Below, piece by piece: positions 5,263-30,153 of a DNA stretch of 64,000 bases. Position numbers and translations under genes: made by a program. Location: positions 12,780 to 76,779 of the forward strand of contig JBAXFQ010000001.1 in assembly GCA_037139835.1 (NCBI GenBank). Direction: 5' to 3'. A model generated the notes under the pieces. It saw nothing but the letters and a program-made list of their open reading frames with translations, had not been told where the DNA came from and did no database searches. This DNA comes from Candidatus Nomurabacteria bacterium (GTDB lineage Bacteria > Patescibacteriota > Minisyncoccia > Phycocordibacterales > UBA9973). The number at the start of each line of letters is the position of its first letter. The first letter of the stretch is position 1.

Positions 5263-5263
5263 G

Positions 5264-5570: not shown

Positions 5571-6977
<1,407 letters not shown>

Positions 6978-7012
6978 TTTTAAAAAATTATATTTTAAGA
7001 TACAATACAATC

Positions 7013-7975: not shown

Positions 7976-8158
7976 ATTAAAATCGATTTAAGGTATAATA
8001 TAAGTATATGAAACCACAATCTAATAAAATATGGTTTATTATAGCGGTTGTTATTATTGGTAACATTGCAATTTTTTATAACATGTCAAAAAAGTTAGAA
8101 AGTTATGTAGCAGATAGTATGATTGAAAATACAGTTATTGGTGGTATAAGTAATAATT

Positions 8159-11091: not shown

Positions 11092-11766
11092 TTAGTGTGC
11101 AACTGCAATGCCTACGACTTTCTTAGCCCCAGATTTTTTCAAAACTTTTATCGCTTCGAGCATAGTTCCACCCGTTGTTGTTACATCATCTATAACAATA
11201 AGAGTTTTACCTTTTATCGATTCACTATTTTTTATTTCAAAAGCTCCTTTTATATTTTTTAATCTTTTATTTCTGTTTGTTAGCCTAGCTTGTGGTATTG
11301 TATTTAATTTTTTATATAAAATATTTGTTTTTAAAATAATGATATTATCATTTTTCGTACAGCAGAAGGCTCTAGCAATAATTTCAGACTGATTATATCC
11401 TCTTTTATTGTATTTGTTTTTAGATATTGGTATTGGTATGACAAATATAGGTGATCCTTTTGAAAATGTTTTTATTGAATCAATTTCTTCTAGCATTGAT
11501 TCATATAGCATCTCTCCAAATTTTTTACCCAAGTAGGGAGAGTGATGGTATTTTAATTTCCATATAGCTTTTTTTATCAGAGGATCTCTGTAGTCATAAA
11601 GTGCTATTATATTTTCCTCTGTTTGTCTTTCTGCCAATTTCAGACTATCTATACAATTTGAACATATTATTTCGCCTCTGATATTGCACCCAATACATCT
11701 CGAAGGGAATAGGATTCCGAGGATTAGATTCAAACTTCTTCTCAATGTATATATTGTCTTTTCCAC
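11092..11766 (-). CDS. comFC: ComF-family protein (ComFC; double zinc ribbon + phosphoribosyltransferase domain)
   Basis: CIGCNIRGEIICSNCIDSL plus the PRTase P-loop LIVIDDVTTTGGTM. It is divergent from pilM. Confidence 0.75.
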   Translation of the reverse strand: MEKTIYTLRRSLNLILGILFPSRCIGCNIRGEIICSNCIDSLKLAERQTEENIIALYDYRDPLIKKAIWKLKYHHSPYLGKKFGEMLYESMLEEIDSIKTFSKGSPIFVIPIPISKNKYNKRGYNQSEIIARAFCCTKNDNIIILKTNILYKKLNTIPQARLTNRNKRLKNIKGAFEIKNSESIKGKTLIVIDDVTTTGGTMLEAIKVLKKSGAKKVVGIAVAH

Positions 11767-11810
11767 TTCTTAATTTTACAATATATATGTTATACTGGAT
11801 AGTAATTAAT

Positions 11811-12959
11811 ATGGATAAATCACTAAAGAATGTAATATCATCTGGACTAGCCAGCCTCTCTGAGATATTTTCCTCTGATAAATCTACGAAGAGCGTTTTG
11901 GGTATAGATATTGGTTCTTCTGCTATAAAAGTTGTCCAACTAAAAAAGAAAAATGGAAAAGCCGTCCTAGAGACTTATGGTGCTATTTCACTTGGTCCTT
12001 ATGGTAATACAGACATAGGTTCAGTGACTAACTTAAAAACAGAAGATATCGTTCGAGCTCTACTTGATGTTATGAAAGAATCAAATGTAACTGTTAAGAC
12101 AGGTATTTTAGCTATCCCTTCTTCTTCTAGTTTGATTTTTACAATTTCTCTTCCAGACAAGATTACTGAGGACAAGCTTTCAAGTGTAGTCCCTCTAGAA
12201 GCTCGTAAATATATCCCAGTTCCCATTACAGAAGTTTCTTTGGATTGGTTTGTTCTTCCAAAGGAGGCTGATTCGTCTGAGATAAACATAATGAATAATA
12301 CTGTTGCTCAAAAAATACCTGATCCCAAGACAGAAGTTCTAGTTGTTGCTATCCACAACGATATACTTGGACGCTATCAAGAAATCCTTAAAGATACAGA
12401 TATACATTCCGATTCATTTGAAATGGAAATATTTAGTAATATAAGAGCTTCTTTTTCTCATGATTTGGCTCCAGTCTTACTTATGGACTTTGGTGCTTCT
12501 AAGACCAAGCTTTCCATCATAGAAGAAGGAGTTGTTCACGTCTTCCATGTTGTAAACAGGGGAGGAGCAGATATTACAAAAAATATTGTCAGCTCTATGG
12601 GTATATCTTTTGCAGAAGCAGAAAAGTTAAAGAGATCTATTGGTCTAGATGCAAATAGTAATCCAGAAGTCGCAGATATCATAAGATTGTCTGTTGATTA
12701 TATCTTATCAGATACAAATAGTGTTGTGTTTGCATACCAGAAGAAGTATAATAAAAACATCAGCAAAGTTATTCTTACTGGCGGAGGCTCTCTCACGAAA
12801 GGATTGATAGAAAGAGCCGTTTCTAATTTTCACACAGAAGTAATTTACAGTAATCCTTTTTCAAAAACAGAAGCTCCAGCATTTTTACTTCCAATTCTAG
12901 AAATTAGTGGACCAGAATTTAGTGTTGCTGTTGGTTTGGCCTTGAGACAATTATTTTAA
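11811..12959 (+). CDS. pilM: Type IV pilus assembly protein PilM (actin-like ATPase)
   Basis: VLGIDIGSSAIKVVQL is an actin/ASKHA fold N-terminus. This is the first gene of the pilMNO block, with start set at MDKSLKNV. Confidence 0.8.
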   Translation: MDKSLKNVISSGLASLSEIFSSDKSTKSVLGIDIGSSAIKVVQLKKKNGKAVLETYGAISLGPYGNTDIGSVTNLKTEDIVRALLDVMKESNVTVKTGILAIPSSSSLIFTISLPDKITEDKLSSVVPLEARKYIPVPITEVSLDWFVLPKEADSSEINIMNNTVAQKIPDPKTEVLVVAIHNDILGRYQEILKDTDIHSDSFEMEIFSNIRASFSHDLAPVLLMDFGASKTKLSIIEEGVVHVFHVVNRGGADITKNIVSSMGISFAEAEKLKRSIGLDANSNPEVADIIRLSVDYILSDTNSVVFAYQKKYNKNISKVILTGGGSLTKGLIERAVSNFHTEVIYSNPFSKTEAPAFLLPILEISGPEFSVAVGLALRQLF

Positions 12960-12962
12960 ATT

Positions 12963-13631
12963 ATGGAGAATTCATTTCAAACATCGTTCATCCCTAAAAA
13001 GCCCATAGTGGCTAATAGTTCTGCATCTAATTCTGACAATAGTATAAGTATTACTATGGTTGTTTCTATTTTTATTTTGGTAGTAATGCTTGCTGCGACA
13101 GGAGGCTTGTATTTGTATAAGAATTATTTACAAAATAACAAAGCAGTGTTATCTGGAAACTTAAAAAAAATCAAGGATAGTTTTGACAAGAATACAATTG
13201 CCAACCTTGAAACGTATGATAAAACTTCTAGTGTTGCTAAACAGATATTAGAAAATCATATAGTATTATCTCCTTTATTTGAATTAATAAATGAGCTAAC
13301 ACTTTCTTCTATTCAATATACAAAGTTCGACCACAAGGTAGTCAACGGGGTATTTTCTGTAAATATGTCAGGTATAGCTCGTGATTATAAATCAATCGCT
13401 CTTCAGGCTGATGTTTTTAGCACTCCTAAAGGCCGTATGTTTCAAAATGTTATTTTTTCTAATTTAACAAAAGACAAGAATAATAATGTAACTTTTAACG
13501 TAGAATTTGATGTAGATCGTGCCTTACTTTCATATTCGAACAATATAACCAATGGCAACATAAAGACTTCAGCAAACAATACACCCTCGATAGACCAGCC
13601 AGCACAACAGGTAACTAATAATCCACAATAA
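12963..13631 (+). CDS. pilN: PilN-like bitopic pilus assembly protein
   Basis: One N-terminal TM helix followed by a periplasmic domain. Positioned after pilM. Confidence 0.55.
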   Translation: MENSFQTSFIPKKPIVANSSASNSDNSISITMVVSIFILVVMLAATGGLYLYKNYLQNNKAVLSGNLKKIKDSFDKNTIANLETYDKTSSVAKQILENHIVLSPLFELINELTLSSIQYTKFDHKVVNGVFSVNMSGIARDYKSIALQADVFSTPKGRMFQNVIFSNLTKDKNNNVTFNVEFDVDRALLSYSNNITNGNIKTSANNTPSIDQPAQQVTNNPQ

Positions 13632-13636
13632 TTATT

Positions 13637-14224
13637 ATGAAAATAATCATTCCAATTTTATTTATAGTTATAGCGGTCCTAGCTTTTATTTTCGGTGTGA
13701 ATCCGTGGTATAATGACGTTAATGCTCTAAGAGCTGAAATATTAGATTATAATACAGCACTAAATAATTCTGCTGAATTACTAAAAGCTGAAGATTCTTT
13801 GATTGGTACATATAATGGCATAAAACAATCAGACAAAGATCGTTTGAGTAGTTTAATCCCTAGTTCAGTAAATAATATCCAATTTATCCTTGAAGTGGAA
13901 CGCATTGCAAATCTTCATAACATGCCGATAAAAGATTTGAAGTTTGAGGCTAGCAGACAAACATCATCAGGAGGGGCTGTCGTCGCTCAAGTTGGGCCAG
14001 ATGATAAACCTTATGGAGTTTTTCCTTTAGAATTTAGCACCGAAGGTACTTATGATACATTTGTTCTTTTCTTAAAAGACCTCGAGTATAATTTGAGATT
14101 AGTTGATGTTAAGTCTATATCATTTACAGTTCCTACTGTGGATCCGTCAGTAAAAATTACAGATGGTTTAGATCCAAACGTATATAAATATTCAGTTAAA
14201 GTAGAGACTTATTGGCTTAAATAA
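13637..14224 (+). CDS. pilO: PilO-like bitopic pilus assembly protein
   Basis: N-terminal TM helix followed by a coiled coil. Positioned after pilN. Confidence 0.5.
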   Translation: MKIIIPILFIVIAVLAFIFGVNPWYNDVNALRAEILDYNTALNNSAELLKAEDSLIGTYNGIKQSDKDRLSSLIPSSVNNIQFILEVERIANLHNMPIKDLKFEASRQTSSGGAVVAQVGPDDKPYGVFPLEFSTEGTYDTFVLFLKDLEYNLRLVDVKSISFTVPTVDPSVKITDGLDPNVYKYSVKVETYWLK

Positions 14225-14226
14225 TT

Positions 14227-14871
14227 ATGCATAGAAAATACAATAAATTTTTAATAGTTTCACTTGTTGCTGTAGTAATACTAGGGGTTTATTCATATTT
14301 TTATAATGATTTAAAGTCAGAGGCTGCAGCCGGAGATAATGCTCTAACGTCTTCTTTGAATCCTACTGGCTCTCCTGTTGCGACAAGTACTAGTGGAACT
14401 TCAACTTTCAGTGAAGATTCAGCATTTTTGTTAAAATTAAATTCTCTAAAGAAGATAAAGATAGATGTTTCTATTTTTGATAGCCAGGCATTTAAGCTTT
14501 TAGTTAGTAATACCATAAAACTTGATCCAGTACCTTACGGAAGAATAAATCCTTTTTCTCCTACAGATAAACCAGTCGTAACCAATAAAGTAACTTATAC
14601 ATTGAAGACTAATCCCGTTTCTGCCTTAACAGCCAAGTCGGCAGTATTAAATGGATCACTAGAAGGTGCTGTTTCAAATAATATATATTTTGAATACGGC
14701 TTAGTGGAACCATTAGATAAAATGACACCTAAGGTCACTCCGTCTTCTATCGGTAGTTTTGCTTCGAATATAATTTCACTTACTCCAAAGACTACTTACC
14801 TATATCGTGCTGTTGCAAATATAAATGGTGCTCTTGTTTATGGAGATATAATTTCATTTAATACAAATTAA
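14227..14871 (+). CDS. Membrane-anchored hypothetical protein in the pilus operon (possible PilP analogue; beta-rich C-terminal domain)
   Basis: Signal-anchor followed by a Ser/Thr-rich linker. Located between pilO and pilB. Confidence 0.4.
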   Translation: MHRKYNKFLIVSLVAVVILGVYSYFYNDLKSEAAAGDNALTSSLNPTGSPVATSTSGTSTFSEDSAFLLKLNSLKKIKIDVSIFDSQAFKLLVSNTIKLDPVPYGRINPFSPTDKPVVTNKVTYTLKTNPVSALTAKSAVLNGSLEGAVSNNIYFEYGLVEPLDKMTPKVTPSSIGSFASNIISLTPKTTYLYRAVANINGALVYGDIISFNTN

Positions 14872-14874
14872 AAT

Positions 14875-16605
14875 ATGATATTACTAGAAGAATTAGTAAA
14901 ACATGGTCTTCTAACAGAAGATCAAGTACCTGAAATTGTAAAATCATCAGAAGAAAAATATGATGGTGATATAGAGCAGGCCTTAGTAAATTTCGGTATA
15001 AACGAGGATTCTATTCTTGAATTGAAAGGGTCAGTTTTTAATATACCAATTAAAAAAGTTGATCTAGGGCTTGTTACATCTTCTATTCTTAAAATAATTC
15101 CAGTAGAGACTACAAAGACTTATCATTTTGTTCCTATTGGAATTACAAATAATGTTCTTGAGATAGGTATTATTGATCCTGAAAACGTGCAAGCTATAGA
15201 TGTTTTGACATTTATTACGGCAAAGTTGGATAAGCCTTTTAAATTATATTTAATTAGTAGTTCTGTATATAGAAAATTATTAGAGAAATATGACGCACTT
15301 AGCAGTGAAGTCGATATGGCTCTTTCAGAGCTAGATCAAGAGATAGCTAATGCAGGAAGTGATAAATCAAAAGATAAAGAAAAAGCACTAAAACCCGGTG
15401 AGACCAGAGAAGAAGAAAAAATTACAGAAGATGCTCCTATAATAAAAATAGTTGCCGTTATCTTGAGACATGCTGTCGAGGGTAATGCTTCAGATATACA
15501 TATAGAGCATGTAGGGGATAGGATAAAAGTACGTTTCCGTGTTGACGGAATTCTTCATACATCTCTCACTCTTCCTGTTGCCGTCTACAATGGAGTAATT
15601 GCTCGTATTAAAATATTGGCCAAGTTAAGATTAGATGAGAAACGTAAACCACAAGATGGTGGCTTCTCTACAAAAATGGAAGGCCGAAAGATAGACTATC
15701 GTGTCTCCACAATGCCATCTTATTATGGTGAGAAGATAGTTATGCGTATTCTTGATTCACAGAGAGGTGTGAAGCCTTTGAATGATTTAGACATGTCTCC
15801 TTCAAATCTAGCTTTAGTTCGTGAAGCCTTAGACAAACCATACGGACTTATCTTGATAACTGGCCCTACTGGTTCTGGTAAAACGACGACTTTGAATTCG
15901 ATGATAAGTGAACTAGATCATGAAAAAGAAAATATAGTCACACTGGAAGATCCTGTTGAGTATCACATTGATGGTGTAAACCAGTCACAAGTCGCCCCAG
16001 AGATAGGATATACTTTTGCTTCGGGTTTACGTTCTATTTTAAGACAAGACCCAGATGTAATCATGGTGGGAGAGATCCGTGATAAAGAGACAGCTGAGCT
16101 CGCTATTCAAGCTGCTCTTACTGGTCACTTAGTATTTTCTACACTCCACACCAATAGTTCTGTCGGTGCTATCCCTCGTTTGATAGATATGGGAATCGAT
16201 CCATACTTGATAGCTCCTACTCTAATCCTTTGTATGGCTCAACGTTTAGCTCGTAAAATACAGGTAAATTCTAAACAAGAAATCCCAATAGATGAAGCGA
16301 AAAGATTATTGATAGACAAGCATTTTGCGGATTTGCCTGCTGAATATAAGTCAAAGATAAATTTCAATACATCCGTTTTTGAAGCTATCTCAACTCCTGA
16401 ATGTCCATCAGGAATGCTCGGACGTGTTCCTGTTTATGAAATGTTCAAGATAGATAAAGAAATGCAAAAAATAATATTAAGTAAACCTCAAGAACAGGAT
16501 ATCTATGCACTTGCACGTTCAAGAGGTATGCTCACTATTCGCGAAGATGCGATTATTAAAAGTATGGAAGGCTTAATTCCTTTTAAAGAGATATATAACT
16601 TCTAG
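14875..16605 (+). CDS. pilB: Type IV pilus assembly ATPase PilB (GspE family)
   Basis: N1/N2 domains, Walker A GPTGSGKTTT, Asp and His boxes, and a C-terminal tetra-Cys-like region. Confidence 0.9.
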   Translation: MILLEELVKHGLLTEDQVPEIVKSSEEKYDGDIEQALVNFGINEDSILELKGSVFNIPIKKVDLGLVTSSILKIIPVETTKTYHFVPIGITNNVLEIGIIDPENVQAIDVLTFITAKLDKPFKLYLISSSVYRKLLEKYDALSSEVDMALSELDQEIANAGSDKSKDKEKALKPGETREEEKITEDAPIIKIVAVILRHAVEGNASDIHIEHVGDRIKVRFRVDGILHTSLTLPVAVYNGVIARIKILAKLRLDEKRKPQDGGFSTKMEGRKIDYRVSTMPSYYGEKIVMRILDSQRGVKPLNDLDMSPSNLALVREALDKPYGLILITGPTGSGKTTTLNSMISELDHEKENIVTLEDPVEYHIDGVNQSQVAPEIGYTFASGLRSILRQDPDVIMVGEIRDKETAELAIQAALTGHLVFSTLHTNSSVGAIPRLIDMGIDPYLIAPTLILCMAQRLARKIQVNSKQEIPIDEAKRLLIDKHFADLPAEYKSKINFNTSVFEAISTPECPSGMLGRVPVYEMFKIDKEMQKIILSKPQEQDIYALARSRGMLTIREDAIIKSMEGLIPFKEIYNF

Positions 16606-16642
16606 TAGGAAAAGTATTGTAATTGTATTATAATATATTGGT

Positions 16643-17032
16643 ATGGATCAAAGTAAAAAAATTCTAATTATAGATGATGATAGTTTTCTTTTGGATATGT
16701 ATGCATTAAAATTTACTAAATCAAATTTTGATGTTACTGCGGCGTTGGGTCCAGAAATTGCCTTAGAAAAACTACATTTAGGTTTAAAGCCAGATGTAAT
16801 ACTGCTTGATATTGTAATGCCAGTTATGGATGGATTTGAATTGCTTGAGAAAATGAAAGAAGAAAGCTTATCTCAGGATTCCATCAAGATTATTCTTTCA
16901 AATAGAGGTCAAGCTTCTGATATTGCTAGAGGAGAATCTCTCGGAGCAGCTGGATATATAGTAAAAGCTTCAAGTACTCCAACAGAAGTTTTAGAAAAAG
17001 TTAAAAGTATTATTAATGAGAAAAAAATATAA
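16643..17032 (+). CDS. Stand-alone CheY-like receiver protein (PilH-like position)
   Basis: ILIIDDDSFLLDMY ... LLDIVMPVMDGFELL ... KIILSN. It sits between pilB and pilT. Confidence 0.75.
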   Translation: MDQSKKILIIDDDSFLLDMYALKFTKSNFDVTAALGPEIALEKLHLGLKPDVILLDIVMPVMDGFELLEKMKEESLSQDSIKIILSNRGQASDIARGESLGAAGYIVKASSTPTEVLEKVKSIINEKKI

Positions 17033-17034
17033 AT

Positions 17035-18093
17035 ATGGATTACAATAAATTTTTAGATGAAATATTAACAAGTTTAATTCACGAAGATGGATCAGACTTA
17101 CATCTCGGGGTAGGGCGTAAGCCAGCTATCCGTATCAATGGTCAGCTTGTTTTTCTAACAAATAAAGAGAACCTAAAGAGTGAAGATATGATTAGTATCC
17201 TAAGTATTATTCTTGGTAAAGAAAAAACTGAAAAATTCTTGGAAGATAAAGAAGTAGACTTCTCTTTTGCTTTCAAGGGGTTAGCACATTTGCGAGGCAA
17301 TGCTTATTTTCAGAGGAGTGGCATCTGTATTGCATTAAGACTTGTCCCCAAGGCTAAGAGTTTTGAAGATTTAAATCTTCCAGGTGTCCTTAAAACTTTT
17401 GCTATGAACAAGCAAGGATTTTTCCTTGTAGTTGGACCAGTAGGTCAAGGTAAGTCTACAACTCTTTCGACCATGATAAATTTTATAAATAAAGAAAGTA
17501 CAACTCATATAATAACTATTGAAGACCCTATAGAGCATGTATATACACAAGAAAGGTCTATTATAGATCAACGTGAAATAGGTCTAGATACAAAAGATTT
17601 CCCTGTAGCTTTAAAGTCCGCTTTTCGTGAAGACGTCAATGTGATCCTTATCGGTGAGATGCGTAACAATGAGACTATCTCTGCGGCAGTTACAGCTGCC
17701 GAGACTGGGCACTTGGTATTCTCAACGCTACATACGAACAATGCCCCCCAGACTATCGATCGTATCATCGACTCTTTCCCCGCTAATCAGCAGGATCAGA
17801 TAAGACTTCAACTCGCTTCTAGTTTGCTCGGTATTTTATCTCAGCGTCTTATCCCTCGTATTACAGGAGGACGTATACCTGCATTTGAATTACTTATAAA
17901 CAATAATGCTGTTTCAAATCTTATCAGAGAAAAGAGAACACACGAGATAAATACAGTCATAGAGACATCTTCAGAGCAGGGTATGATAGATATGAATCGG
18001 TATTTGATAGAATTAGTAGCTAAAGGAGAAATTTCTCTTGAAAGTGCTTATCAATATTCATTTAATCCAAAGGCACTTGAGAGAATGCTATAA
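17035..18093 (+). CDS. pilT: Twitching-motility retraction ATPase PilT
   Basis: Walker A GPVGQGKSTT and an AIRNLIRE-like box (AVSNLIREKRTHEI). Confidence 0.9.
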   Translation: MDYNKFLDEILTSLIHEDGSDLHLGVGRKPAIRINGQLVFLTNKENLKSEDMISILSIILGKEKTEKFLEDKEVDFSFAFKGLAHLRGNAYFQRSGICIALRLVPKAKSFEDLNLPGVLKTFAMNKQGFFLVVGPVGQGKSTTLSTMINFINKESTTHIITIEDPIEHVYTQERSIIDQREIGLDTKDFPVALKSAFREDVNVILIGEMRNNETISAAVTAAETGHLVFSTLHTNNAPQTIDRIIDSFPANQQDQIRLQLASSLLGILSQRLIPRITGGRIPAFELLINNNAVSNLIREKRTHEINTVIETSSEQGMIDMNRYLIELVAKGEISLESAYQYSFNPKALERML

Positions 18094-18098
18094 AATAT

Positions 18099-19304
18099 AT
18101 GATATTTAAATATGAAGCCATAACAAGTACAGGGGAGAAAAAAGTTGGGTCTATAGATGCTTCATCTAAAGATTCAGCTGTAGCAGCTATTCAACGTAGA
18201 GGGTTGATAGTCTCTTCTATACAAGAAGAAGGTATTAAAAATGGAATATTTAAATTATCCTTTTTCCAAAAAAGAATAAAAATGAAAGATGTTGTGATCA
18301 TGTCACGACAGATTTCTACTTTATTTGAAGCTCAAGTCTCAGCCTTGAAAGCTTTTCATCTACTCGCTTCAAATACAGAAAATCCTGCCTTGATCAAGGT
18401 CTTGAGTACTATCTCTTCAGATATAGAATCAGGTATCTCTATCTCAGAAGCTCTTTCCCGCCATCCAGATGTCTTCTCAGTTTTCTATGTAAACATGGTA
18501 AAAGCAGGTGAAGAATCCGGTAAGCTGACTCAGACCTTTTCTTATTTGGCTGAATATTTAGATAGACAGTATCAGCTAACTTCAAAGACAAAGAACGCTC
18601 TTATTTATCCTAGTTTCGTTATTGGAGTCTTCTTTGTAGTTATGATACTCATGTTCGTTTTTATTGTTCCTAGACTAGCTGCTATCATCAAAGATTCAGG
18701 TCAAGCCATACCATTTTCTACTAAAATCGTTTTCGCTTTAAGTGACTTACTTATCAATTACGGTTTATTTGTATTTATCGGAGTTTGTATTTTTGCTTTC
18801 TATTTATATAGGATGAGTAAGTCTGAGTCAGGAATGAAATACTTAGACAGAGTAAAGATTTCTATCCCTGTAATGAAAAATATTTTCATCAAGCTTTATC
18901 TTTCTAGAATTGCAGATAATCTAGATACATTACTTTCTTCTGGTGTTACTATTATTCGTTCGATGGAGCTTACTTCCGTTATTGTAGGGAATAGAGTCTA
19001 TGAAGATATTTTAAAAGATGCGACAGAGAAAGTGAAGAGTGGTAGTTCTCTATCTGAGGCTTTTGGTTCTTATCCAGAGATACCTCCTATCATGGTAGGT
19101 ATGATACACGTCGGAGAAGAGACAGGTTCTCTCGGAAATATCTTGAAAACATTGGGTAAATTTTACAATCGTGAAGTAAATGAAGCAGTCGATACTATGG
19201 TCTCTCTAATCGAGCCGATGATGATCGTTGCCCTCGGTCTTGGAGTTGGACTTCTTCTCACCTCTGTTCTCATGCCAATCTACAATATTGCAGGAGGAAT
19301 ATAA
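18099..19304 (+). CDS. pilC: Type IV pilus inner-membrane platform protein PilC (GspF family)
   Basis: 401 aa with two GspF repeats and three TM helices. Confidence 0.85.
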   Translation: MIFKYEAITSTGEKKVGSIDASSKDSAVAAIQRRGLIVSSIQEEGIKNGIFKLSFFQKRIKMKDVVIMSRQISTLFEAQVSALKAFHLLASNTENPALIKVLSTISSDIESGISISEALSRHPDVFSVFYVNMVKAGEESGKLTQTFSYLAEYLDRQYQLTSKTKNALIYPSFVIGVFFVVMILMFVFIVPRLAAIIKDSGQAIPFSTKIVFALSDLLINYGLFVFIGVCIFAFYLYRMSKSESGMKYLDRVKISIPVMKNIFIKLYLSRIADNLDTLLSSGVTIIRSMELTSVIVGNRVYEDILKDATEKVKSGSSLSEAFGSYPEIPPIMVGMIHVGEETGSLGNILKTLGKFYNREVNEAVDTMVSLIEPMMIVALGLGVGLLLTSVLMPIYNIAGGI

Positions 19305-19350
19305 GAATAATTGAGAATTAATAATTATTAATTAATAATTTAAACTCAAA

Positions 19351-19380
19351 AATACGTCGGCTCTGCCGACGTATTTTGTA
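19351..19380 (+). terminator. Rho-independent terminator after pilC
   Basis: acgtcggc tct gccgacgt followed by ATTTTGTATTT. Confidence 0.65.
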
Positions 19381-19480
19381 TTTATTATTAATACTATTCG
19401 CTAGAAACTAATCACTGATTATTAATCACTAACCCTTACTTGTCCACAGTCTATAAGTATTGTGCTTTTAATAATCTTAT

Positions 19481-19491
19481 ATGATATAATA
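19481..19491 (+). promoter_or_regulatory. Extended -10 promoter (TGATATAAT) for the major pilin gene
   Basis: ATATGATATAATAC lies about 65 nt upstream of the pilin ATG. A small hairpin (gtctttcataaaaaaagac) is present in the leader. Confidence 0.45.
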
Positions 19492-19557
19492 CATATATTA
19501 AAAAGTTAGGTCGCGTCTTTCATAAAAAAAGACAAATTATTAATTTAAATTTTAATC

Positions 19558-20067
19558 ATGAATAAAAATAAAGGTTTTACGCTTATTGAACTTTTGGTTG
19601 TTATTGCAATCATCGGTATCCTAGCTTCGGTCGTGTTGGCTTCTCTTTCTGGAGCAAGAACAAAAGCAAAGATAGCTGCAGTTCAATCAACATTAGCTTC
19701 AGCAAGAGCTCAAGCAGAGATTGGAATGGTAAATGGTAAATATATTCCAGATATTTGTCACTCAGGTTCAACGGGTTCTCTTAAGTTATTAATTGATTCT
19801 TTGAATAAAGTATCTTCTAAAGTTACTGAAATTAGATGTGGTTCTGATGCATCAGATTCATCAGGTTGGGCCAATAAATGGGCATTGGAAGCAGTAGTTG
19901 ATGGTAAATATTATTGTGCTGATAGTTCTGGATATTCTGGTCTTTCTGGTACGATTGGGTCAACTAGTGCTATCAGTCCAGCTTCAGTCACTATAAGTTC
20001 AAGCTCAGCTAATTCAATAACGGGTACTTATTCTTCTACTTCAGTAGACCTATCTTGTGCTTCTTAG
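19558..20067 (+). CDS. Type IV major pilin (class III signal peptide; Ser/Thr-rich C-terminal tail; 4 Cys)
   Basis: The sequence MNKNKG|FTLIELLVVIAIIGILASV is a prepilin leader with Glu+5. Confidence 0.85.
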   Translation: MNKNKGFTLIELLVVIAIIGILASVVLASLSGARTKAKIAAVQSTLASARAQAEIGMVNGKYIPDICHSGSTGSLKLLIDSLNKVSSKVTEIRCGSDASDSSGWANKWALEAVVDGKYYCADSSGYSGLSGTIGSTSAISPASVTISSSSANSITGTYSSTSVDLSCAS

Positions 20068-20105
20068 TTTTTTTTGCAGTAAATTATTAATTAATTTTAA
20101 AAATA

Positions 20106-20606
20106 ATGAATAAAAATAAAGGTTTTACACTTATTGAACTCTTAGTTGTTATTGCAATCATCGGTATTCTAGCTTCGGTCGTATTAGCTTCACTTTCTTC
20201 TGCTCGTGATAAAGGGAAGGACGCAGCCGTGAAGTCTCAGCTCGCAAGTATGAAGGCTCAGGCAGAATTGTTTTTTGCTAAAAGTGAAACATATGCTAAT
20301 GTTTGTGGTGATTCTCAAGTCAATAATGGCTTTGGAGGGGCATCAGGTCCAGGACTATTGTCTGCAGCTCATGCTTCGTCTGGTTCAGCAACTCCAGGGT
20401 CTACCGGTGTTGCGATAAATAATATATCATCAGCTCAAGTTTCTACTCAGACTGTTTGTAATGATTCAGATTCTGCTTGGGCAGTATCAGTGCCTTTAGC
20501 CACAAGTAGTTCTGGCTCACCATCTTATTACTGTTCTGATAATACTGGTTTATCAAAGGAAACTACTGTTCCTTTAGATAGCAAGACTGATTACGTTTGT
20601 AATTAA
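20106..20606 (+). CDS. Type IV pilin paralog
   Basis: Its N-terminal 31 aa are identical to the upstream pilin, and it has a divergent Ser/Gly-rich head. Confidence 0.85.
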   Translation: MNKNKGFTLIELLVVIAIIGILASVVLASLSSARDKGKDAAVKSQLASMKAQAELFFAKSETYANVCGDSQVNNGFGGASGPGLLSAAHASSGSATPGSTGVAINNISSAQVSTQTVCNDSDSAWAVSVPLATSSSGSPSYYCSDNTGLSKETTVPLDSKTDYVCN

Positions 20607-20626
20607 TTTATAGAGTATCTCTAAAA

Positions 20627-20661
20627 ACCAATCCACTCTATCGGATTGGTTTTTTGTTTGG
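20627..20661 (+). terminator. Rho-independent terminator after the second pilin
   Basis: aaccaatcc actctatc ggattggtt followed by TTTTTG. Confidence 0.7.
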
Positions 20662-20769
20662 TTGTGTGATAAAATAGTTAAAATAATATATTGATTTCAT
20701 TATTTTTTTGTTTTTTCAGATTTTACCAACAACAAATATTTTACTTAAAGAATTTATTAATTTTAATTT

Positions 20770-22326
20770 ATGGAATTAAATAAAAAAAGATTTTTATGCG
20801 CGAAGGCTTTATTTATCGCCCTGTTTTTTTTTATTTGGTTATTATTTTTGCGTTTTAATTCAATAAATTCTCCTTTTATGAGAGACGAGGGTGAGTATGA
20901 TTATGCAGCACAGCTATTGCACGACGGGGGAGTTCCATACAAGGAATCATTTATGCAGAAGCCACCAATGATTATTTATACTTATTCTCTGGCTCAGACT
21001 TTTGGTGATAGTGTTTCTTTTCCTCGAATATTAGCTTTGATTTCACTTTTTCTAGCAGGTCTAATTTTGGCTGATATTTTAAGAAAAGAATATAATCCAA
21101 AGACGGCTGTAGTCTTTTTATTTCTTTTTTCGTCCCTGATATCTTTTTATCCCTTAGAGGGATTTTTTGCTCAACCCGAAATATTCTTATTGTTACCCTT
21201 AGCTATTTCACTATGGTGCTATTTCAAATGGAAATATACCAAAAGAGAACCCTGGCTTTATTTTATTGGATTTTTTGGCTTAATTTCAATACTCTATAAA
21301 CCAATAATACTATTAGCTGTATTTTTCATATTCTTATATATACTTTTATTTGAAATATTAAAAAATAAAGCCACTTTTTTAAAAATTATTAAGTATAGTT
21401 CGTTAATTTTCTTGGGAGGGTTATCTGCTACTCTTATAGTTATATTACCCATCTTTTTGAAAGGCGGACTGACCTACATGTGGGATTCAGCTTTTTATTA
21501 TAATTATTATTATGCATCATTTGTCGGCCTAAATTTTAGTAGAATATTTTCATTATTTATTTATTTATGGCCATACCTCTTATTAGTTTTATATTTTTAT
21601 ATTAAAGATAAAAAAAATAATATATTTTTTTTAGGTATATTATTTGGTAGTTTCTTTGGATCTTTTGGAAGTTTGCAGTTGCACTATTATCTTGTAACGA
21701 TACCAGTATTAGCCATGATTAGTTCTATCTCTATCGTCAACCTAGAGGAAAATTATAGCTCTTTTGTAAATAAAAATAGAAGAATTTTAATTACATTATT
21801 AATTTGTTTTTTTCTATTTTTTTTATTATTTTTTCAATTTAGAGATTATCTTTTTATAAAATCGAGAAATTTTACAGATTATTTTTTCCCAGAATGTTCA
21901 TTTGGTCAATCTGTGTTACTAGGTCAAGAACTAAAAAAGATTACAAAAGAAAACGATGGGATTTTTATTTTTGGCAATGAACCTGAGATATTATATTATG
22001 CCCATAGGAAAAGTGTCACTAGATTTATGATAACTTATCCAATTATACTTAAAACTAAGTTATCAAAAAGGTATGCATTGGAAGCATTGTCTGATCTCAA
22101 ACTAAATCCCCCTAAAGCTATTATTACTAATAGTAAACTAGATTTAAATATAACGGATACCCAAGGAGGCGACATTTATAGAAATACAATTATTAGTACG
22201 ATAAAGAATGAATATTATTTCGCAGGCCAAGTATATTCTGCCAAAGAAAGTAATAATTATGAATTTGGTTTTCCAATTAAGGATAATAATCACAATATGA
22301 ACTTATCAATTTATATTAAAAAATAG
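20770..22326 (+). CDS. GT-C fold glycosyltransferase of the ArnT/PMT type (GT83/GT39-like)
   Basis: 518 aa with more than 10 TM helices. The first extracytoplasmic loop RDEGEYDYAAQLL...KPPMIIY aligns with the ArnT/PMT DE-x-RYAE ... KPP motif. Confidence 0.6.
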   Translation: MELNKKRFLCAKALFIALFFFIWLLFLRFNSINSPFMRDEGEYDYAAQLLHDGGVPYKESFMQKPPMIIYTYSLAQTFGDSVSFPRILALISLFLAGLILADILRKEYNPKTAVVFLFLFSSLISFYPLEGFFAQPEIFLLLPLAISLWCYFKWKYTKREPWLYFIGFFGLISILYKPIILLAVFFIFLYILLFEILKNKATFLKIIKYSSLIFLGGLSATLIVILPIFLKGGLTYMWDSAFYYNYYYASFVGLNFSRIFSLFIYLWPYLLLVLYFYIKDKKNNIFFLGILFGSFFGSFGSLQLHYYLVTIPVLAMISSISIVNLEENYSSFVNKNRRILITLLICFFLFFLLFFQFRDYLFIKSRNFTDYFFPECSFGQSVLLGQELKKITKENDGIFIFGNEPEILYYAHRKSVTRFMITYPIILKTKLSKRYALEALSDLKLNPPKAIITNSKLDLNITDTQGGDIYRNTIISTIKNEYYFAGQVYSAKESNNYEFGFPIKDNNHNMNLSIYIKK

Positions 22327-22327
22327 A

Positions 22328-22717
22328 ATGTTAAATATATTCAAGGAAAATAAAATAGTCAGATATATCTTCTCAGGCGGAGTTGCTGTCTTTGCAAATC
22401 TTACTATTCTTTTTGTTTTAACAAAATATTTACATATGTTTTATTTAATATCGGCAATTATAGCATTTTGTTTTGGAGTATTGGTTAGTTATTCTCTGCA
22501 TAAATTTTGGACATTTAAAAATTATCTTATAGGGAATATGTCATCTCAATTTTATATTTTCTTTATTTATTCAATTTTAATTTTATGTTTAAATACAATA
22601 CTGATGTATCTTTCTGTTGATATTTTCGGTCTTTGGTATATTTTTTCTCAAGTAATCATTACCATCATTACTTCATTTATAAATTATTTATATTTTAGTA
22701 GAACTATTTTTATCTAA
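22328..22717 (+). CDS. GtrA-family protein (flippase-like)
   Basis: 129 aa with four TM helices and the RYIFSGGVAVFANL...KFWTFKN pattern. Confidence 0.65.
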   Translation: MLNIFKENKIVRYIFSGGVAVFANLTILFVLTKYLHMFYLISAIIAFCFGVLVSYSLHKFWTFKNYLIGNMSSQFYIFFIYSILILCLNTILMYLSVDIFGLWYIFSQVIITIITSFINYLYFSRTIFI

Positions 22718-22719
22718 TT

Positions 22720-23853
22720 ATGTCTAAAAAAACATTTTATCTTATCATTGTTATCTCTTTCGTAGTTTCATTATTTTTCCAATGGACTAGATGGAAGGAT
22801 TTATATTTTATCGACTCACATATGTGGGCTAGTCAAGCACAGTATGTCCAAACAAACGATGCAAGAGAATTCGATGCCAAGATGGCCTATGGTCATCCTG
22901 GTGGCACGGTAGTAGAGGGGGCTATTATCTTCCATGATATATTTAAGGTACCATATGAAGACTCTTTGATAATATTTATAACTATTTTTAATAGTCTAAT
23001 TATTTCAATTATCTGTCTACTTTGTTTTATTTTATACAAAAATCACTTATGGTGGATTATTACTTTATCTACTCTGGCTATGAATTCTGCTTATGATAAT
23101 GCTACCCCAACTTCAGCGATTGTAAGTCCACTTATGGTCCTTTTGACACTTTTAACTTTATATTTTTATAAGAATAAAGAAAAGATTAATATACCTTTAG
23201 TTCTATTTTTTTCTTTAGTTGTTGGATTAGCTTCGTCAACTAGACTTGATATTGGTGTTTTCTGTTCAGTATTTTTTATTGGTTTTTTGAAATATACAAA
23301 TACAATTGATTGGAAAAAATTATTCTATATAATTTTAGGTTCATTTACTACTTTTTGTATATTTGATCCATTTATGTGGTTTATGCCATTTCAGCACATA
23401 AAGGATCTAATAGCAAAAATAATTTTTCATTATAGTGAATTTTTACCTTACCATCTAACCTTCATGAGTGTTTTTATCTTATCAATGCTCACTATCATTA
23501 GTATTTCATTGGCAATATCTATAGTTTTGTTGAAAAATAAAATAAAATTATTAGTACCAGAAAATTTTATTAAAACCTTGATTGTTATGACTATAATTTT
23601 ATATATTATTTTTTTAACTTCACATTATCAGGCAGAACGATATTTTCAACCAATTATTTTTATTTGGGAAGTTTTACTACCATTATTTATATTTAATTTA
23701 ACAACTTATATTTCTCATTCTTTATCTTTTAAAATAGATAAATATATCAAATTTATAAAAGTTCTAAATTTTTCAATTTTTTTACTTCTTGTCAGTTATC
23801 ACTCATTTTTATTTTATATATGGTTTATTTTTGATAGAATAAGACTTGTATGA
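22720..23853 (+). CDS. Polytopic membrane protein of the glycosylation cassette (possible second GT-C-type transferase; unassigned)
   Basis: 377 aa with about 10 TM helices, translationally coupled to its neighbours. Confidence 0.4.
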   Translation: MSKKTFYLIIVISFVVSLFFQWTRWKDLYFIDSHMWASQAQYVQTNDAREFDAKMAYGHPGGTVVEGAIIFHDIFKVPYEDSLIIFITIFNSLIISIICLLCFILYKNHLWWIITLSTLAMNSAYDNATPTSAIVSPLMVLLTLLTLYFYKNKEKINIPLVLFFSLVVGLASSTRLDIGVFCSVFFIGFLKYTNTIDWKKLFYIILGSFTTFCIFDPFMWFMPFQHIKDLIAKIIFHYSEFLPYHLTFMSVFILSMLTIISISLAISIVLLKNKIKLLVPENFIKTLIVMTIILYIIFLTSHYQAERYFQPIIFIWEVLLPLFIFNLTTYISHSLSFKIDKYIKFIKVLNFSIFLLLVSYHSFLFYIWFIFDRIRLV

Positions 23854-24620
23854 ATAAATTAAAAGTGATAGTTGTAATGCCTGCTTATAATGCTGAAGCT
23901 ACCTTAGCTAAAACAATCGGAGATATACCATTTGATTATATTGATGAGATTATATTGGTTGATGATGCCTCGAGCGATAAAACCTCTGAGTTAGCCAAAG
24001 GCATAGCCACTAAGCATGATTTGTTGACTTTGGATTTAAATGATTACCTTATAGATGATTCTAAAATTTTATTTACAATAAAAAAACTTATTAAAAATAA
24101 AGGTTACGGAGGTAATCAAAAGGAATGTTATGATATAGCCCTCAGTCACGGGGCAGATATCGTAGTTATGCTACATCCAGACTATCAATATGATCCAAAG
24201 CTTATAAAATATTTTATTGAATATATAGAAGATGGTTATTTTGATACAGTTTTAGGTTCTAGAATTCGTAGTCGAAAAGAGACCTTAGCAGGGGGTATGC
24301 CTTTATATAAATACTATTCAAATAGGTTTCTTTCTCTTATTCAAAATATATCGAGCGGTCACAATCTTTCAGAATGGCATACTGGGATGAGAGCTTACAA
24401 AAAAGAAGTATTAGAGAATATAAAATATGATAAATTCTCAGATGATTTTATATTTGATACTCAAATGTTATTTTCTATAATTAAAAAGGGTTATATGGTG
24501 GGGGATATACCAGTCCCAGTTCGGTATTTCAAGGAGGCTTCTTCTATTAATTTCAAAAGAAGCTTTAAGTATGGAGTTTATACTCTTTGGGAAACTATTA
24601 AATTTATACTAAATAAGTAA
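23850..24620 (+). CDS. GT2 glycosyltransferase (polyprenyl-phosphate sugar synthase, GtrB/DPM-synthase-like)
   Basis: VVMPAYNAEATL ... LVDDASSDKT ... and the DxD region, with an approximately 35-aa insertion after the first Rossmann strand. Confidence 0.75.
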   Translation: MNKLKVIVVMPAYNAEATLAKTIGDIPFDYIDEIILVDDASSDKTSELAKGIATKHDLLTLDLNDYLIDDSKILFTIKKLIKNKGYGGNQKECYDIALSHGADIVVMLHPDYQYDPKLIKYFIEYIEDGYFDTVLGSRIRSRKETLAGGMPLYKYYSNRFLSLIQNISSGHNLSEWHTGMRAYKKEVLENIKYDKFSDDFIFDTQMLFSIIKKGYMVGDIPVPVRYFKEASSINFKRSFKYGVYTLWETIKFILNK

Positions 24621-24715
24621 TAGAATTTTGTCTATATTAGTCTTTTGTTTGAATAAATAAAATAAGTTTTTTGCCTATACCAAAATTTACAACAGGATGG
24701 TATAATCAATGGTAT

Positions 24716-25528: not shown

Positions 25529-25543
25529 TTTTATTTACTTTTA

Positions 25544-26248
25544 ATGTATAAAAAAAATTACATAAAAATAATAAAAAATATTTCAAATATCAAGGGTTTG
25601 ACTTTGGTGGAGTTGATTGTAGTTATATCGATTTTTATGATTATTACATCGGTGGCGATTTTTAATTATGGTAATTTTAATTCAACAGTCTCACTTCAGA
25701 ATCTTACTGATGATATAGCATTATCTATACGTAAGGCTCAGGGCTTTGCTATTGGAGCTCGTGGAGTGGAGGAGGGTGTGGGACCTGATAAAGTATTTAA
25801 CTTCAATAATAGTTATGGTATGCATTTTTCTGTAGATCCTAATCCTACAGGATCTTTGTCTGGGTCCAATAAATCATTTCTAATGTTTACCGTACCGATA
25901 CCTGTAGATAAATCTACTGTATATGATAAAAAATATGTATATGATGAAAGTGCGAATGCAGTCTGTAACGATGGTGTGAATAAATGTGTAGAATTATTTA
26001 ACATAAATACCATAGATGAGATAAAAGATATAAAGATAGATGGTGTATCAAAAGCTTCAGGGTCTATAGATATTGTATTCACTCGTCCAGATCCTAGGGC
26101 TAATTTTTGCTATAGGACTAGCTTGTCTAGTTCTTGTAATTCCGATATTTCAGATGTAGAGATAGTTTTATCAAACGGTCAAACAGATGAACAATTTAGA
26201 ACCAAGACTATAACTATACAAAATACAGGACAAATAAGTATTCAATAA
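25544..26248 (+). CDS. Minor pilin / pseudopilin
   Basis: Prepilin N-terminus NIKG|LTLVELIVVISIF. Confidence 0.7.
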   Translation: MYKKNYIKIIKNISNIKGLTLVELIVVISIFMIITSVAIFNYGNFNSTVSLQNLTDDIALSIRKAQGFAIGARGVEEGVGPDKVFNFNNSYGMHFSVDPNPTGSLSGSNKSFLMFTVPIPVDKSTVYDKKYVYDESANAVCNDGVNKCVELFNINTIDEIKDIKIDGVSKASGSIDIVFTRPDPRANFCYRTSLSSSCNSDISDVEIVLSNGQTDEQFRTKTITIQNTGQISIQ

Positions 26249-26252
26249 TATT

Positions 26253-26912
26253 ATGATTAAAATTATTAGAAAAAATAAAAACGAAAGGTTTATTCAAACA
26301 TCAAATTTTAAAAATGGAACAAATTTGATATCGGGCTTTACTTTGATAGAACTGATGATAGCTACCACTCTATTTACTATTATCATGATGATGGGAGTAG
26401 GTTCATTGGTGGTCTCTTCTAACTCTGCTAAATCTGCTCAGAAGCTTAGAATTTCCGTCGATAATGTAAACTTTGCTATGGAAATTATGACACGCGAGCT
26501 TCGCATGGGGACTCATTATTATTGCGTAACTACTAATCAATATCTGATGGGGGAGACAACAAGAGAAGGTGACTGTGAAGAAGGTGGTAATGTAGTCGAG
26601 TTTGATTCTCCTGTTGATCAGTTGGGTTCGACTCACAGGATTGCGTATTATAAAGAGGAGAGATCTACTCCTGATGGTATAGGTACTTATACATTAAAAA
26701 GATGCGAAGGTGTAAATAAATGTGTAGATATAGTATCTAGAGATGTTAATATTGATATCTTAAAATTTTATGTAAGAGGTTCGAAATTTGACGATAATAT
26801 CCAGCCAAGTGTTCGAATATTGATAAGAGGTAAGGTTACAATTAAAGGAATAGAAAAGACATTTTCTTTGCAGACGATGGCTTCACAACGCTCAACAGAA
26901 ACAACATTATAA
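26253..26912 (+). CDS. Minor pilin / pseudopilin
   Basis: Prepilin motif LISG|FTLIELMIATTLF. Confidence 0.7.
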   Translation: MIKIIRKNKNERFIQTSNFKNGTNLISGFTLIELMIATTLFTIIMMMGVGSLVVSSNSAKSAQKLRISVDNVNFAMEIMTRELRMGTHYYCVTTNQYLMGETTREGDCEEGGNVVEFDSPVDQLGSTHRIAYYKEERSTPDGIGTYTLKRCEGVNKCVDIVSRDVNIDILKFYVRGSKFDDNIQPSVRILIRGKVTIKGIEKTFSLQTMASQRSTETTL

Positions 26913-26913
26913 T

Positions 26914-27519
26914 ATGAATTATTTTAATAGAAAAAATAAAAATAGCGGTTTTACAATCATCGAAGCGATGGTGGCTATATTTATTTTGTCCGTATCTGTA
27001 GCTACGATGCTCGGTATTACAGCTTCGAGTGCAGCTTCAGCTCGCTATGCGAACAATGAAATTACTGCAAATTATCTTTTACAAGAAGCAGTAGACTCTA
27101 TAAGGAATAGCCGAGATACTATGGTATTTCAGCATAAATTATCATGGACAGATTTTCTAAATAGATATGGTTATGCAGGTAATACTAAATGTTTTCCATA
27201 TGAAGGTAACGGTTGTTTTTTATTAATAGAGAATTTCGATCCAGCAAATGTTACAGGTGATGATGTAGAGAATTGCGATGCAGGTATTTGCCCGAATTTT
27301 TTTTACGATAATGAACCAAATAACAACAAGACATTTTATAATTATACTAGTTCGACAGGATACATAGGTGAATTCAGAAGAACTATAAATATGGATGTGG
27401 ATAGTAATGCCCCGGATCAGTTGAAAGTCACTGTAAATGTTGAATGGTATAACGGAAGTGAGACAAATAAAAGATCTCAATCTTTAACATTTTATTTATT
27501 GAATTGGCAGAAAAGTTAA
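26914..27519 (+). CDS. Minor pilin / pseudopilin
   Basis: KNSG|FTIIEAMVAIFILSV. Confidence 0.7.
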   Translation: MNYFNRKNKNSGFTIIEAMVAIFILSVSVATMLGITASSAASARYANNEITANYLLQEAVDSIRNSRDTMVFQHKLSWTDFLNRYGYAGNTKCFPYEGNGCFLLIENFDPANVTGDDVENCDAGICPNFFYDNEPNNNKTFYNYTSSTGYIGEFRRTINMDVDSNAPDQLKVTVNVEWYNGSETNKRSQSLTFYLLNWQKS

Positions 27520-27522
27520 TTT

Positions 27523-27999
27523 ATGAAAAATATTAAAGCCAAAAAAGAAAATAAAGGATATGCTATATTATTTACTGTCGTAGTGGTTGGTATTATTTCA
27601 GCTATTACTTTCGGACTTACAAATGCAGCCTATAAGCAAATGATGCTATCGTCAGTGGCTAGAGATTCCACTTCAGCTTTTTATCAAGCCGATATCGCTA
27701 CAGAGTGTGCTATGTATGCCGATAATTTGGATTTTTTAACAAGTACTAATAATTTAACTACTTTTACATGTGGTGGTACCACTATGAAATATTCTTATAC
27801 TGCAGGTACTACAAATAATACTTCACTTTATCAGTTGTCTCCTCAAAATGAGTCTTCGACTGGAAAATGCTTTAGGGTGGATGTGACTAAGACTGATAAT
27901 GATGTTTTGATTACTACAAAAGTTGAAGCCTTGGGTTATAATATATGTAATAAAAATAATTTCAGGACAGTTGAACGTGCAATTGAAGTTAATTATTAA
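27523..27999 (+). CDS. Pilin-like protein lacking Glu+5 (PilX-like)
   Basis: ENKG|YAILFTVVVVGIIS. It follows the minor pilin trio. Confidence 0.5.
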   Translation: MKNIKAKKENKGYAILFTVVVVGIISAITFGLTNAAYKQMMLSSVARDSTSAFYQADIATECAMYADNLDFLTSTNNLTTFTCGGTTMKYSYTAGTTNNTSLYQLSPQNESSTGKCFRVDVTKTDNDVLITTKVEALGYNICNKNNFRTVERAIEVNY

Positions 28000-28005
28000 A
28001 AATAG

Positions 28006-30135
<2,130 letters not shown>

Positions 30136-30153
30136 ATATGTTATTCTAAAATC

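Follow-up and report, generated by a model that had tools for sequence, protein, structure and literature searches.

A putative glycosylation cassette within a type IV pilus locus

We examined a 64-kb stretch of DNA (the window) from a Candidatus Nomurabacteria bacterium, about 32% GC, which carries a type IV pilus locus with all genes on one strand (11745-30135, + strand). Within this locus, two tandem prepilin genes (19558-20067 and 20106-20606, both +) are followed by four closely packed genes and then by the gene for the prepilin peptidase PilD (24671-25528, +; A24_N_bact, E 1.6e-33, and Peptidase_A24), whose true start is likely the ATG at 24716. A terminator-like hairpin with a 12-bp stem and a T-rich tail (20623-20654, +) marks the boundary between the pilin genes and the four-gene cassette. 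A first-pass annotation had described this same succession of two prepilins, hairpin terminator, four packed genes and PilD, and every element was found in its place. All four components that it assigned to the cassette are likewise present, listed there in the order of the pathway rather than that of the genes: from 5' to 3' the cassette encodes a 518-aa GT-C protein of the PMT_2 type (20770-22326, +), a small membrane protein of the GtrA family (22328-22717, +), a 377-aa membrane protein (22720-23853, +) and a GT2 glycosyltransferase (23850-24620, +). The first two junctions are spacers of 1 nt and 2 nt; at the third, an ATGA overlap joins the stop codon of the 377-aa gene to the start of the GT2 gene. 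With a GT2 related to dolichyl-phosphate mannose synthase (DPMS) and ArnC, a GtrA protein and GT-C transferases, the cassette does amount to the lipid-linked, extracytoplasmic glycosyl-transfer set that had been proposed. GC content falls to 26% over the cassette (22001-24000); the dip probably reflects membrane proteins rich in Phe, Ile, Leu, Lys and Asn with AT-rich codons, and it may also mark a foreign origin.

The 377-aa protein is a compact membrane-only transferase with a GT-C fold

The third gene of the cassette (22720-23853) encodes a protein of an unclassified family: searches with the single protein and with a family profile gave no sequence match in Pfam, NCBIfam or the PDB. Its AlphaFold2 model (pLDDT 90.1) has about 11 transmembrane helices and no soluble domain. 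In Foldseek, the top 20 matches to this model were all GT-C glycosyltransferases, with TM-scores of about 0.6, and anything else scored a probability of 0.12 or less; the matches include the membrane domain of PglB, ALG9, ArnT, ALG3, AftA, ALG12, AftB, DPY19 and PMT. The model of the 518-aa protein also has the GT-C fold by Foldseek, and profile-profile comparison (hhalign, probability 74%) indicates a weak relation between the two families.

When the N-terminus is placed inside according to the positive-inside rule, all 23 residues that are invariant in the 377-aa family fall on the predicted outer face. Conserved positions on this face comprise D32, H59-P-G-G, R175, D177, D216-PFMWFMP, H226 and R307-Y308. 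D32 is nearly invariant (at least 90% of the family) and lies just before an external helix (residues 33-44), as in other GT-C enzymes; both transferases of the cassette thus open their first long external loop with acidic residues, D32 in the 377-aa protein and D39-E40 in the 518-aa protein. In the model, the outer-face residues have the layout of a GT-C active site. As for the donor, one feature suggests that these GT-C proteins use a sugar linked to polyprenyl phosphate, namely the adjacent and often overlapping gene for a DPMS/ArnC-type GT2. The family is sizeable, with 326 clusters at 50% identity, 310 of them matched with E at or below 1e-10.

Several known families were tried and rejected. 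Judging from its length and model, the 377-aa protein has no C-terminal external domain that could hold a WWDYG-type module, so we do not class it as an STT3-type N-oligosaccharyltransferase. PglL/TfpO was set aside for both transferases, as Pfam finds no Wzy_C and the fold matches GT-C only. For YfhO/PgtC2 there was no Pfam match at E up to 0.01 with the window proteins, or up to 1 with 32 family members. The first-pass annotation had left this protein as a second, unexplained polytopic extra; it is instead a protein of GT-C fold, and the member of the cassette that tracks pilin genes.

The 377-aa gene recurs beside prepilin-type genes

We compared 53 loci that carry a gene of the 377-aa family (related loci from other genomes are given L-numbers), annotated with the window proteins and a prepilin motif. 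When lineages were defined as clusters at 70% identity these loci reduced to 33, of which 21 had enough flanking sequence to be judged; a homologue with 41% identity (L060), added via a search with the GT2, raised the informative lineages to 22. Since the loci were chosen for carrying the 377-aa gene, the count speaks for these and does not extend to pilus loci without it. A prepilin-type gene lies within 2.3 kb of the 377-aa gene, and mostly within 250 bp, in 15 of the 22 lineages. Prepilin motifs occur in the 64-kb window at this locus only, so adjacency by chance would be expected in a few percent of cases. In most low-GC lineages the 377-aa gene and the GT2 gene abut or overlap, and coupling of their translation is the usual case.

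The arrangement differs from genome to genome. The 377-aa gene lies between the pilin genes and PilD in the window, L001, L011/L056 and L015, between two pilin genes in L010 and L012, and beside a lone pilin gene in L020. It is found on the opposite strand in L047 and L054, between PilD and the pilin genes, and in L025, next to a pilin gene. In L021, labelled Saccharibacteria, it stands in a group of five pilin genes, and assembly genes are not within reach. These varied layouts argue against simple inherited synteny. Finally, in a lineage of about 60-68% GC the 377-aa gene lies directly downstream of a gene with N_methyl and DUF1559 (SBP_bac_10) domains and has no adjacent GT2 gene. This arrangement is seen on six contigs (L039, positions 6733-9137, 66% GC; L033, L037, L041, L046 and L049), with the arrangement noted in contigs of 62-66% GC; the six are close relatives and were counted as a single lineage, and some of the metagenome-assembled genomes (MAGs) concerned are labelled Pirellulales or Verrucomicrobiota.

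We tentatively propose that the 377-aa protein belongs to a previously unrecognised, minimal GT-C family, which may be dedicated to the O-glycosylation of prepilin-type proteins: the major type IV pilins in Patescibacteria and the DUF1559 pilin-like proteins in the high-GC lineage.

Some further genes were seen at the loci compared. A Fic-domain protein (HPFxDGNGR) and a nucleotidyltransferase/HEPN-like pair are encoded among the pilin genes, the 377-aa gene and PilD in L010 (8930-12541). Genes for a methyltransferase dependent on S-adenosylmethionine lie in or beside the glycosylation cassette in L001 (11584-12348, minus strand) and L004 (1552-2448); a methylated sugar is one possibility. Just downstream of the pair formed by the 377-aa gene and a GT2-GtrA gene, L008 (13763-17357) and L055 (9348-14212) carry cytochrome oxidase subunit genes; both contigs have 45-47% GC and belong to the lineages where the pair stands away from pilins.

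The 518-aa protein is a rare accessory transferase

The first gene of the cassette (20770-22326) encodes about 11 transmembrane helices followed by a C-terminal alpha/beta domain, which is predicted to lie outside the membrane. The protein matches Pfam PMT_2 (30.2 bits, cutoff 26.1), a match found for 13 of the 15 members of its family. Invariant throughout the family are D39-E40-G-E-Y43 and K64-P-P66, so that the DE..Y and KPP motifs that had been read from the sequence hold up at D39, E40, Y43, K64 and P66. They align with DEGRY and EKPP of ArnT (5EZM), within an alignment that is not significant overall (E 3.3). The AlphaFold2 model (pLDDT 89.4) gave GT-C proteins as its top 47 Foldseek matches (STT3, PglB, AglB, ArnT, DPY19, AftA, Emb and PMT; best E 1e-7), with STT3/PglB/AglB, ArnT, DPY19 and AftA at similar TM-scores of 0.56-0.59. 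Searches of the PDB by sequence and by profile returned nothing significant, and no NCBIfam family matched.

The earlier statement that this protein matches ArnT is therefore sound for superfamily and motifs and goes too far beyond them, since NCBIfam gives no match and the fold is as near to STT3/PglB/AglB. Membership of the ArnT family was rejected on curated models and on context: neither transferase matches the NCBIfam ArnT model, a profile search of the PDB reaches ArnT at E 3.3 only, and the GT2 scores under the ArnC cutoff. A scan of parts of the window turned up no arnA, arnB or arnD and no genes for teichoic acid or polysaccharide. PMT (GT39) membership was rejected as well, as the 518-aa protein matches PMT_2 only, and not PMT with its MIR and PMT_4TMC domains, and the 377-aa protein matches none of these.

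Only 14 homologues of the 518-aa protein were found in a collection of 5.8 billion proteins. The close ones accompany the module of 377-aa gene and GT2 gene, not pilins: one is inside the pilus locus of L001 in another gene order, one directly follows LigA in L003, and one, in L008, has no pilin gene nearby. Distant homologues occur in non-pilus contexts, with further GT-C paralogues, GT2 genes or TPR proteins around them. In L006 (10001-13398; a Chitinispirillaceae MAG) a distant homologue with 28% identity lies beside two TPR proteins, and a T2SSF gene and a prepilin-type gene stand next to it on the other strand. The first-pass annotation had cast the 518-aa protein as the pilin transferase. 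Its rarity and its occurrence without pilins (L008) do not fit that role, and it is the 377-aa gene that tracks pilins instead. We conclude that the 518-aa protein is a rare accessory GT-C glycosyltransferase of the PMT_2 type, and not specifically an ArnT.

The GT2 and GtrA proteins as the proposed donor side

The last gene of the cassette (23850-24620) encodes a GT2 of 256 aa without a transmembrane segment (PF00535, E 3e-18). Among solved structures, it matches the Pyrococcus Dol-P-Man synthase (DPMS, 5MLZ; E 6e-6) and ArnC best in sequence, and it has the features of a polyprenyl-phosphate glycosyltransferase of the DPMS/GtrB/ArnC type, in agreement with the earlier assignment as a polyprenyl-phosphate-sugar synthase. 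The nearest NCBIfam models are AglJ, a Dol-P-hexose transferase, PpgS, ArnC and PgfS, and all matches fall below the equivalog cutoffs (33 bits against a cutoff of 529 for ArnC); the sugar therefore cannot be named from them, and no specific orthology is assigned. The subfamily is widespread, with more than 8000 matches and an identity of 59-75% among the 119 best non-self clusters.

The GtrA protein (22328-22717; 129 aa) matches PF04138 with E 8e-19, a family that Pfam names "GtrA/DPMS transmembrane domain". In seven related loci (L003, L008, L017, L026, L035, L052 and L055) the GT2 and GtrA are fused, which is the architecture of the archaeal DPMS of Pyrococcus. Because of these fusions GtrA may be the membrane subunit of the synthase, as in DPMS; it may also be a flippase, or both. 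Thus, of the "GtrA-like flippase" named in the first-pass annotation, the family assignment stands and the flippase role is uncertain.

The two pilins are old paralogues

Both prepilins (prepilin 1, 169 aa; prepilin 2, 166 aa) match N_methyl (E 7e-11 each) and TIGR02532, and PilB, PilT, PilC, PilM and PilD are encoded in the same locus, as expected for type IV pilins. Their residues 1-31 are identical, as had been noticed before, while overall identity is 44%. This shared N-terminus, together with divergent Ser/Thr-rich heads and tails, had been read as pointing to pilin variation or sequential expression. However, the related genomes have pilins with the same helix, GFTLIELLVV(I/V)AIIGIL, and several synonymous differences separate the two genes within their first 96 nt; identical N-termini are therefore not a mark of recent duplication or switching.

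Prepilin 2 is the conserved paralogue, with a tail of the form CNDS..AWA..VPL...YC.D.TG.SK. Its globular part is closer to the pilin of L003 (37% identity, E 2e-18) than to prepilin 1 (28%, E 2e-4), and it has relatives in L003, L010, L015, L040, L027 and L012. Prepilin 1 is the lineage-variable paralogue, with an S/T-rich C-terminal part, and beyond the N-terminal helix it has weak relatives only. Tandem pilin pairs are also present in L001, L003, L011, L015, L024 and L040. We therefore reject the idea of variation cassettes, as prepilin 2 is closer to foreign pilins than to its neighbour, tandem pairs are conserved and the common N-terminus is the universal pilin helix. From these comparisons the two pilins appear to be old, conserved paralogues and not switchable variants. 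Antigenic variation seems a less likely role for them than joint use in a heteropolymeric pilus or a division of labour; they would probably co-assemble or have distinct roles. Beyond mature residue 50, serine and threonine make up 32% of pilin 1 and 29% of pilin 2.

Comparison with known glycosylation systems

TfpW, the arabinosyltransferase for group IV pilin in Pseudomonas aeruginosa, is a GT-C enzyme encoded just downstream of pilA that acts on Ser/Thr of the pilin. At about 646 aa it carries a TPR domain at its C-terminus together with the motif DDx, and its D-arabinofuranose comes from a DprE1/DprE2 pathway encoded elsewhere. The cassette resembles this system in pairing a GT-C membrane enzyme with a major pilin gene, in the proposed use of a sugar linked to polyprenyl phosphate, in the predicted action on the outer side and in a GtrA-like participant; the adjacency to the major pilin gene is seen in the window and, for the 377-aa family, in the 15 lineages counted above. 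It differs in that the cassette proteins have no TPR domain and carry a DE motif (518-aa protein) or a single D (377-aa protein). Furthermore, the donor enzyme is a DPMS/ArnC-type GT2 in the same cassette, rather than a pathway from phosphoribosyl pyrophosphate via DprE, and the pilin-linked enzyme is a membrane-only protein of 377 aa. By the features compared, namely size, TPR domain, DDx motif and D-arabinofuranose pathway as TfpW is described, we rejected membership of the TfpW family for both transferases.

The streptococcal pairs GtrB/PgtC2 and PgfS/PgfM1 glycosylate Ser/Thr-rich extracytoplasmic regions. In these systems a GT2 makes the undecaprenyl-phosphate-linked sugar and a GT-C passes it to such regions of membrane-associated proteins in a monoderm host, and PgfS is among the NCBIfam neighbours of the cassette GT2. 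In contrast, PgtC2 belongs to the YfhO family, whereas the cassette transferases match no Pfam family except PMT_2, and the streptococcal systems are broad in specificity and unlinked to pilin genes. The O-mannosylation systems of actinobacteria (Ppm1/Pmt) and eukaryotes (Dpm1/PMT) likewise combine a polyprenyl-phosphate-sugar synthase with a GT-C that carries a DE motif in its first external loop, and the catalytic domain of the synthase can be separate from its membrane partner or fused to it. They differ in that the 518-aa protein matches PMT_2 and not PMT with MIR domains, and the 377-aa protein matches neither.

With O-antigen glucosylation by GtrA, GtrB and a Gtr-type transferase, the cassette shares the three-part logic and the GtrA Pfam family. 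However, GtrB has C-terminal transmembrane helices where the cassette GT2 has none and is fused to GtrA in relatives, the Gtr acceptor is O-antigen, and the cassette has two GT-C genes. The likeness to ArnC/ArnT, which modify lipid A, consists of a structural TM-score of 0.58 to ArnT, the DE/KPP alignment and the weak match of the GT2 to ArnC; against it stand the missing NCBIfam ArnT match, the absence of arnA/B/D from the scanned genes of the window and the equally good match to structures of the oligosaccharyltransferase type.

Proposed mechanism and alternatives

On balance, we favour reading the cassette as an extracytoplasmic O-glycosylation system that depends on a lipid carrier and has type IV pilin as its main client. 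In such a system the GT2, without a transmembrane segment of its own and held by or working with GtrA, would load one sugar derived from a nucleotide sugar onto polyprenyl phosphate at the cytoplasmic face, a step suggested by family membership. The lipid-linked sugar would then reach the outer leaflet, a movement to which GtrA may contribute. There the 377-aa GT-C would move the sugar to Ser or Thr residues of membrane-anchored (pre)pilins before assembly, as gene linkage suggests. In the few lineages that have it, the 518-aa GT-C might take its donor from this pool as well and either attach one more sugar or act on other sites or proteins, which is the weakest step of the scheme. The candidate pilin O-glycosylation pathway put forward in the first-pass annotation has thus gained from a pilin linkage that recurs across genomes, with the roles it gave to the 518-aa and 377-aa proteins reversed.

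Several points weigh against this reading. In seven of the 22 informative lineages (L003, L007, L008, L019, the L052 group, L055 and L060) no pilin gene is near; these carry the pair of 377-aa gene and GT2 gene, often with a GtrA-fused GT2. Many of the linked loci share ancestry, so inheritance of synteny inflates the count. The junction between pilins and PilD also holds unrelated cargo (the Fic gene and toxin-antitoxin pair in L010, the methyltransferase gene in L001) and may therefore be an insertion hotspot. The GT2 family has other partners too: in L059 a GT2 homologue stands beside a TPR membrane protein, which is unrelated to the 518-aa family. The Ser/Thr richness of the adjacent pilins discriminates acceptors poorly, as pilins are generally rich in these residues: the content is 26% in major pilins, 20% in minor pilins and 11.5% in cytoplasmic neighbours. 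Finally, both the pilin acceptor and the sugar are proposed from gene neighbourhood only.

Some of these points fit a general system of extracytoplasmic protein O-glycosylation in the streptococcal or actinobacterial style, which would serve many Ser/Thr-rich clients. Pilin linkage would then be frequent but not universal because pilins are merely the most abundant of these clients. About a third of the informative lineages do carry the pair away from pilins, the GT2 family is very widespread and has other membrane partners, and streptococcal GtrB/PgtC2 is just such a broad system. We nevertheless consider this unlikely. Broad-specificity systems such as that of Neisseria PglL are typically unlinked to their targets, whereas adjacency to prepilin-type genes recurs here across quite dissimilar layouts and in genomes of two contrasting types.

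A non-protein acceptor in the envelope (a teichoic-acid-like polymer, a glycolipid or a wall polysaccharide), as with GtrABV, CsbB/YfhO or ArnC/ArnT, seems to us improbable. PMT_2/ArnT- and Gtr-type systems often modify lipids or polysaccharides, and the position of the cassette would then reflect a permissive insertion site together with inherited synteny; the cargo in L010 and L001 is in keeping with such a site, as is the GC dip over the cassette, though AT-rich codons of membrane proteins can explain the latter. On the other hand, linkage to pilins is also seen outside the main pilus locus (L020 and L021) and in the high-GC lineage (L039), and the scanned parts of the window yielded none of the arn, teichoic-acid or polysaccharide genes. 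Patescibacteria are not known to have lipid A, and an ArnT-like role would therefore have no substrate. Lastly, it is very unlikely that pilin O-glycosylation falls to the 518-aa protein, with the 377-aa protein as an auxiliary (flippase, scaffold or polymerase). The 518-aa protein does carry DE and KPP in their classical form, its C-terminal domain is predicted to be external and could bind the acceptor, its gene lies directly after the pilin terminator in the window, and it has a distant homologue beside the T2SSF and pilin pair of L006. However, it is missing from most pilin-linked loci (L010, L011, L012, L015, L020, L021, L025, L047 and L054) and has 14 homologues only, and the 377-aa protein has the fold of a GT-C, too, along with a conserved site on its outer face.

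Other features of the locus and the window

Upstream of the pilins, open reading frames (ORFs) and Pfam matches (PilM_2) delimit pilM, three small PilN/O/P-like genes, pilB, a gene for a CheY-like receiver, pilT and pilC (11745..19304, +), an order also found in L001, L010, L011, L012, L015 and L047. A terminator-like hairpin with a 13-bp stem that includes 6 GC pairs lies 3' of pilC (19349..19377, +). Downstream of PilD, four minor-pilin-like genes (25544..27999, +; N_methyl in three) are arranged in an order that is repeated in related loci, and LigA (28021-30135) comes after them. Promoter-like matches in the window were at chance level (81 against 76 expected) and were not used to set operon boundaries.

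The CheY-like receiver (16643-17032) is a single-domain protein whose gene separates pilB from pilT in all the related pilus loci that were examined (L001, L003, L010, L011, L012, L015, L025, L047 and L056). No kinase is encoded in the locus, and the receiver is a conserved regulator built into it. LigA, an NAD-dependent DNA ligase, lies directly 3' of the minor pilin genes in the window, L001, L003, L010-L012, L015, L047, L054 and L056. It is followed by an Amidase-family (GatA-like) gene in the window (28021-31859 region), and by GatC and an Amidase-family gene in L056-L058. This synteny of pilus and ligase genes might be related to DNA uptake.

Elsewhere in the window there are two divergent tRNA-Ser genes (5263-5350, minus; 5576-5663, plus). 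ARAGORN gives the second an unusual ACT anticodon, and it overlaps the called 5' end of an enolase ORF whose Pfam domain begins only at residue 41. A free-standing ORF with a LAGLIDADG-like domain (39856-40557) lies immediately upstream of a tRNA-Gln gene (40564-40635).

Implications

Among the surface machines of Patescibacteria, type IV pili are conserved best, and they mediate attachment to host cells. DUF1559 is a very large family of pilin-like proteins in Planctomycetes whose function is unexplained. In cultured Saccharibacteria, type IV pili drive host binding, competition and motility; in the one experimental study of their pili, glycosylation sites on the pilin were predicted by software only, and its authors call for confirmation. 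The literature consulted on Patescibacteria contains predictions of pilin glycosylation only and names no enzyme for it. The 377-aa GT-C module is thus the first concrete enzyme candidate for this modification in the group, and an enzyme set of GT2, with or without GtrA, and the 377-aa GT-C would make patescibacterial pilin glycosylation testable. A GT-C enzyme of about 370 residues without a soluble domain would also be a minimal model of how a protein acceptor is recognised. Pilin glycans in Pseudomonas block pilus-specific phages, and it is plausible that a pilin glycan in Patescibacteria would likewise help to evade phages or to recognise hosts. The linkage to DUF1559 genes hints at glycosylation of planctomycete pilin-like proteins. 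If the 377-aa family is indeed dedicated to prepilin-type proteins, pilus glycosylation would be common among these ultrasmall episymbiotic bacteria and would have gone unseen until now.

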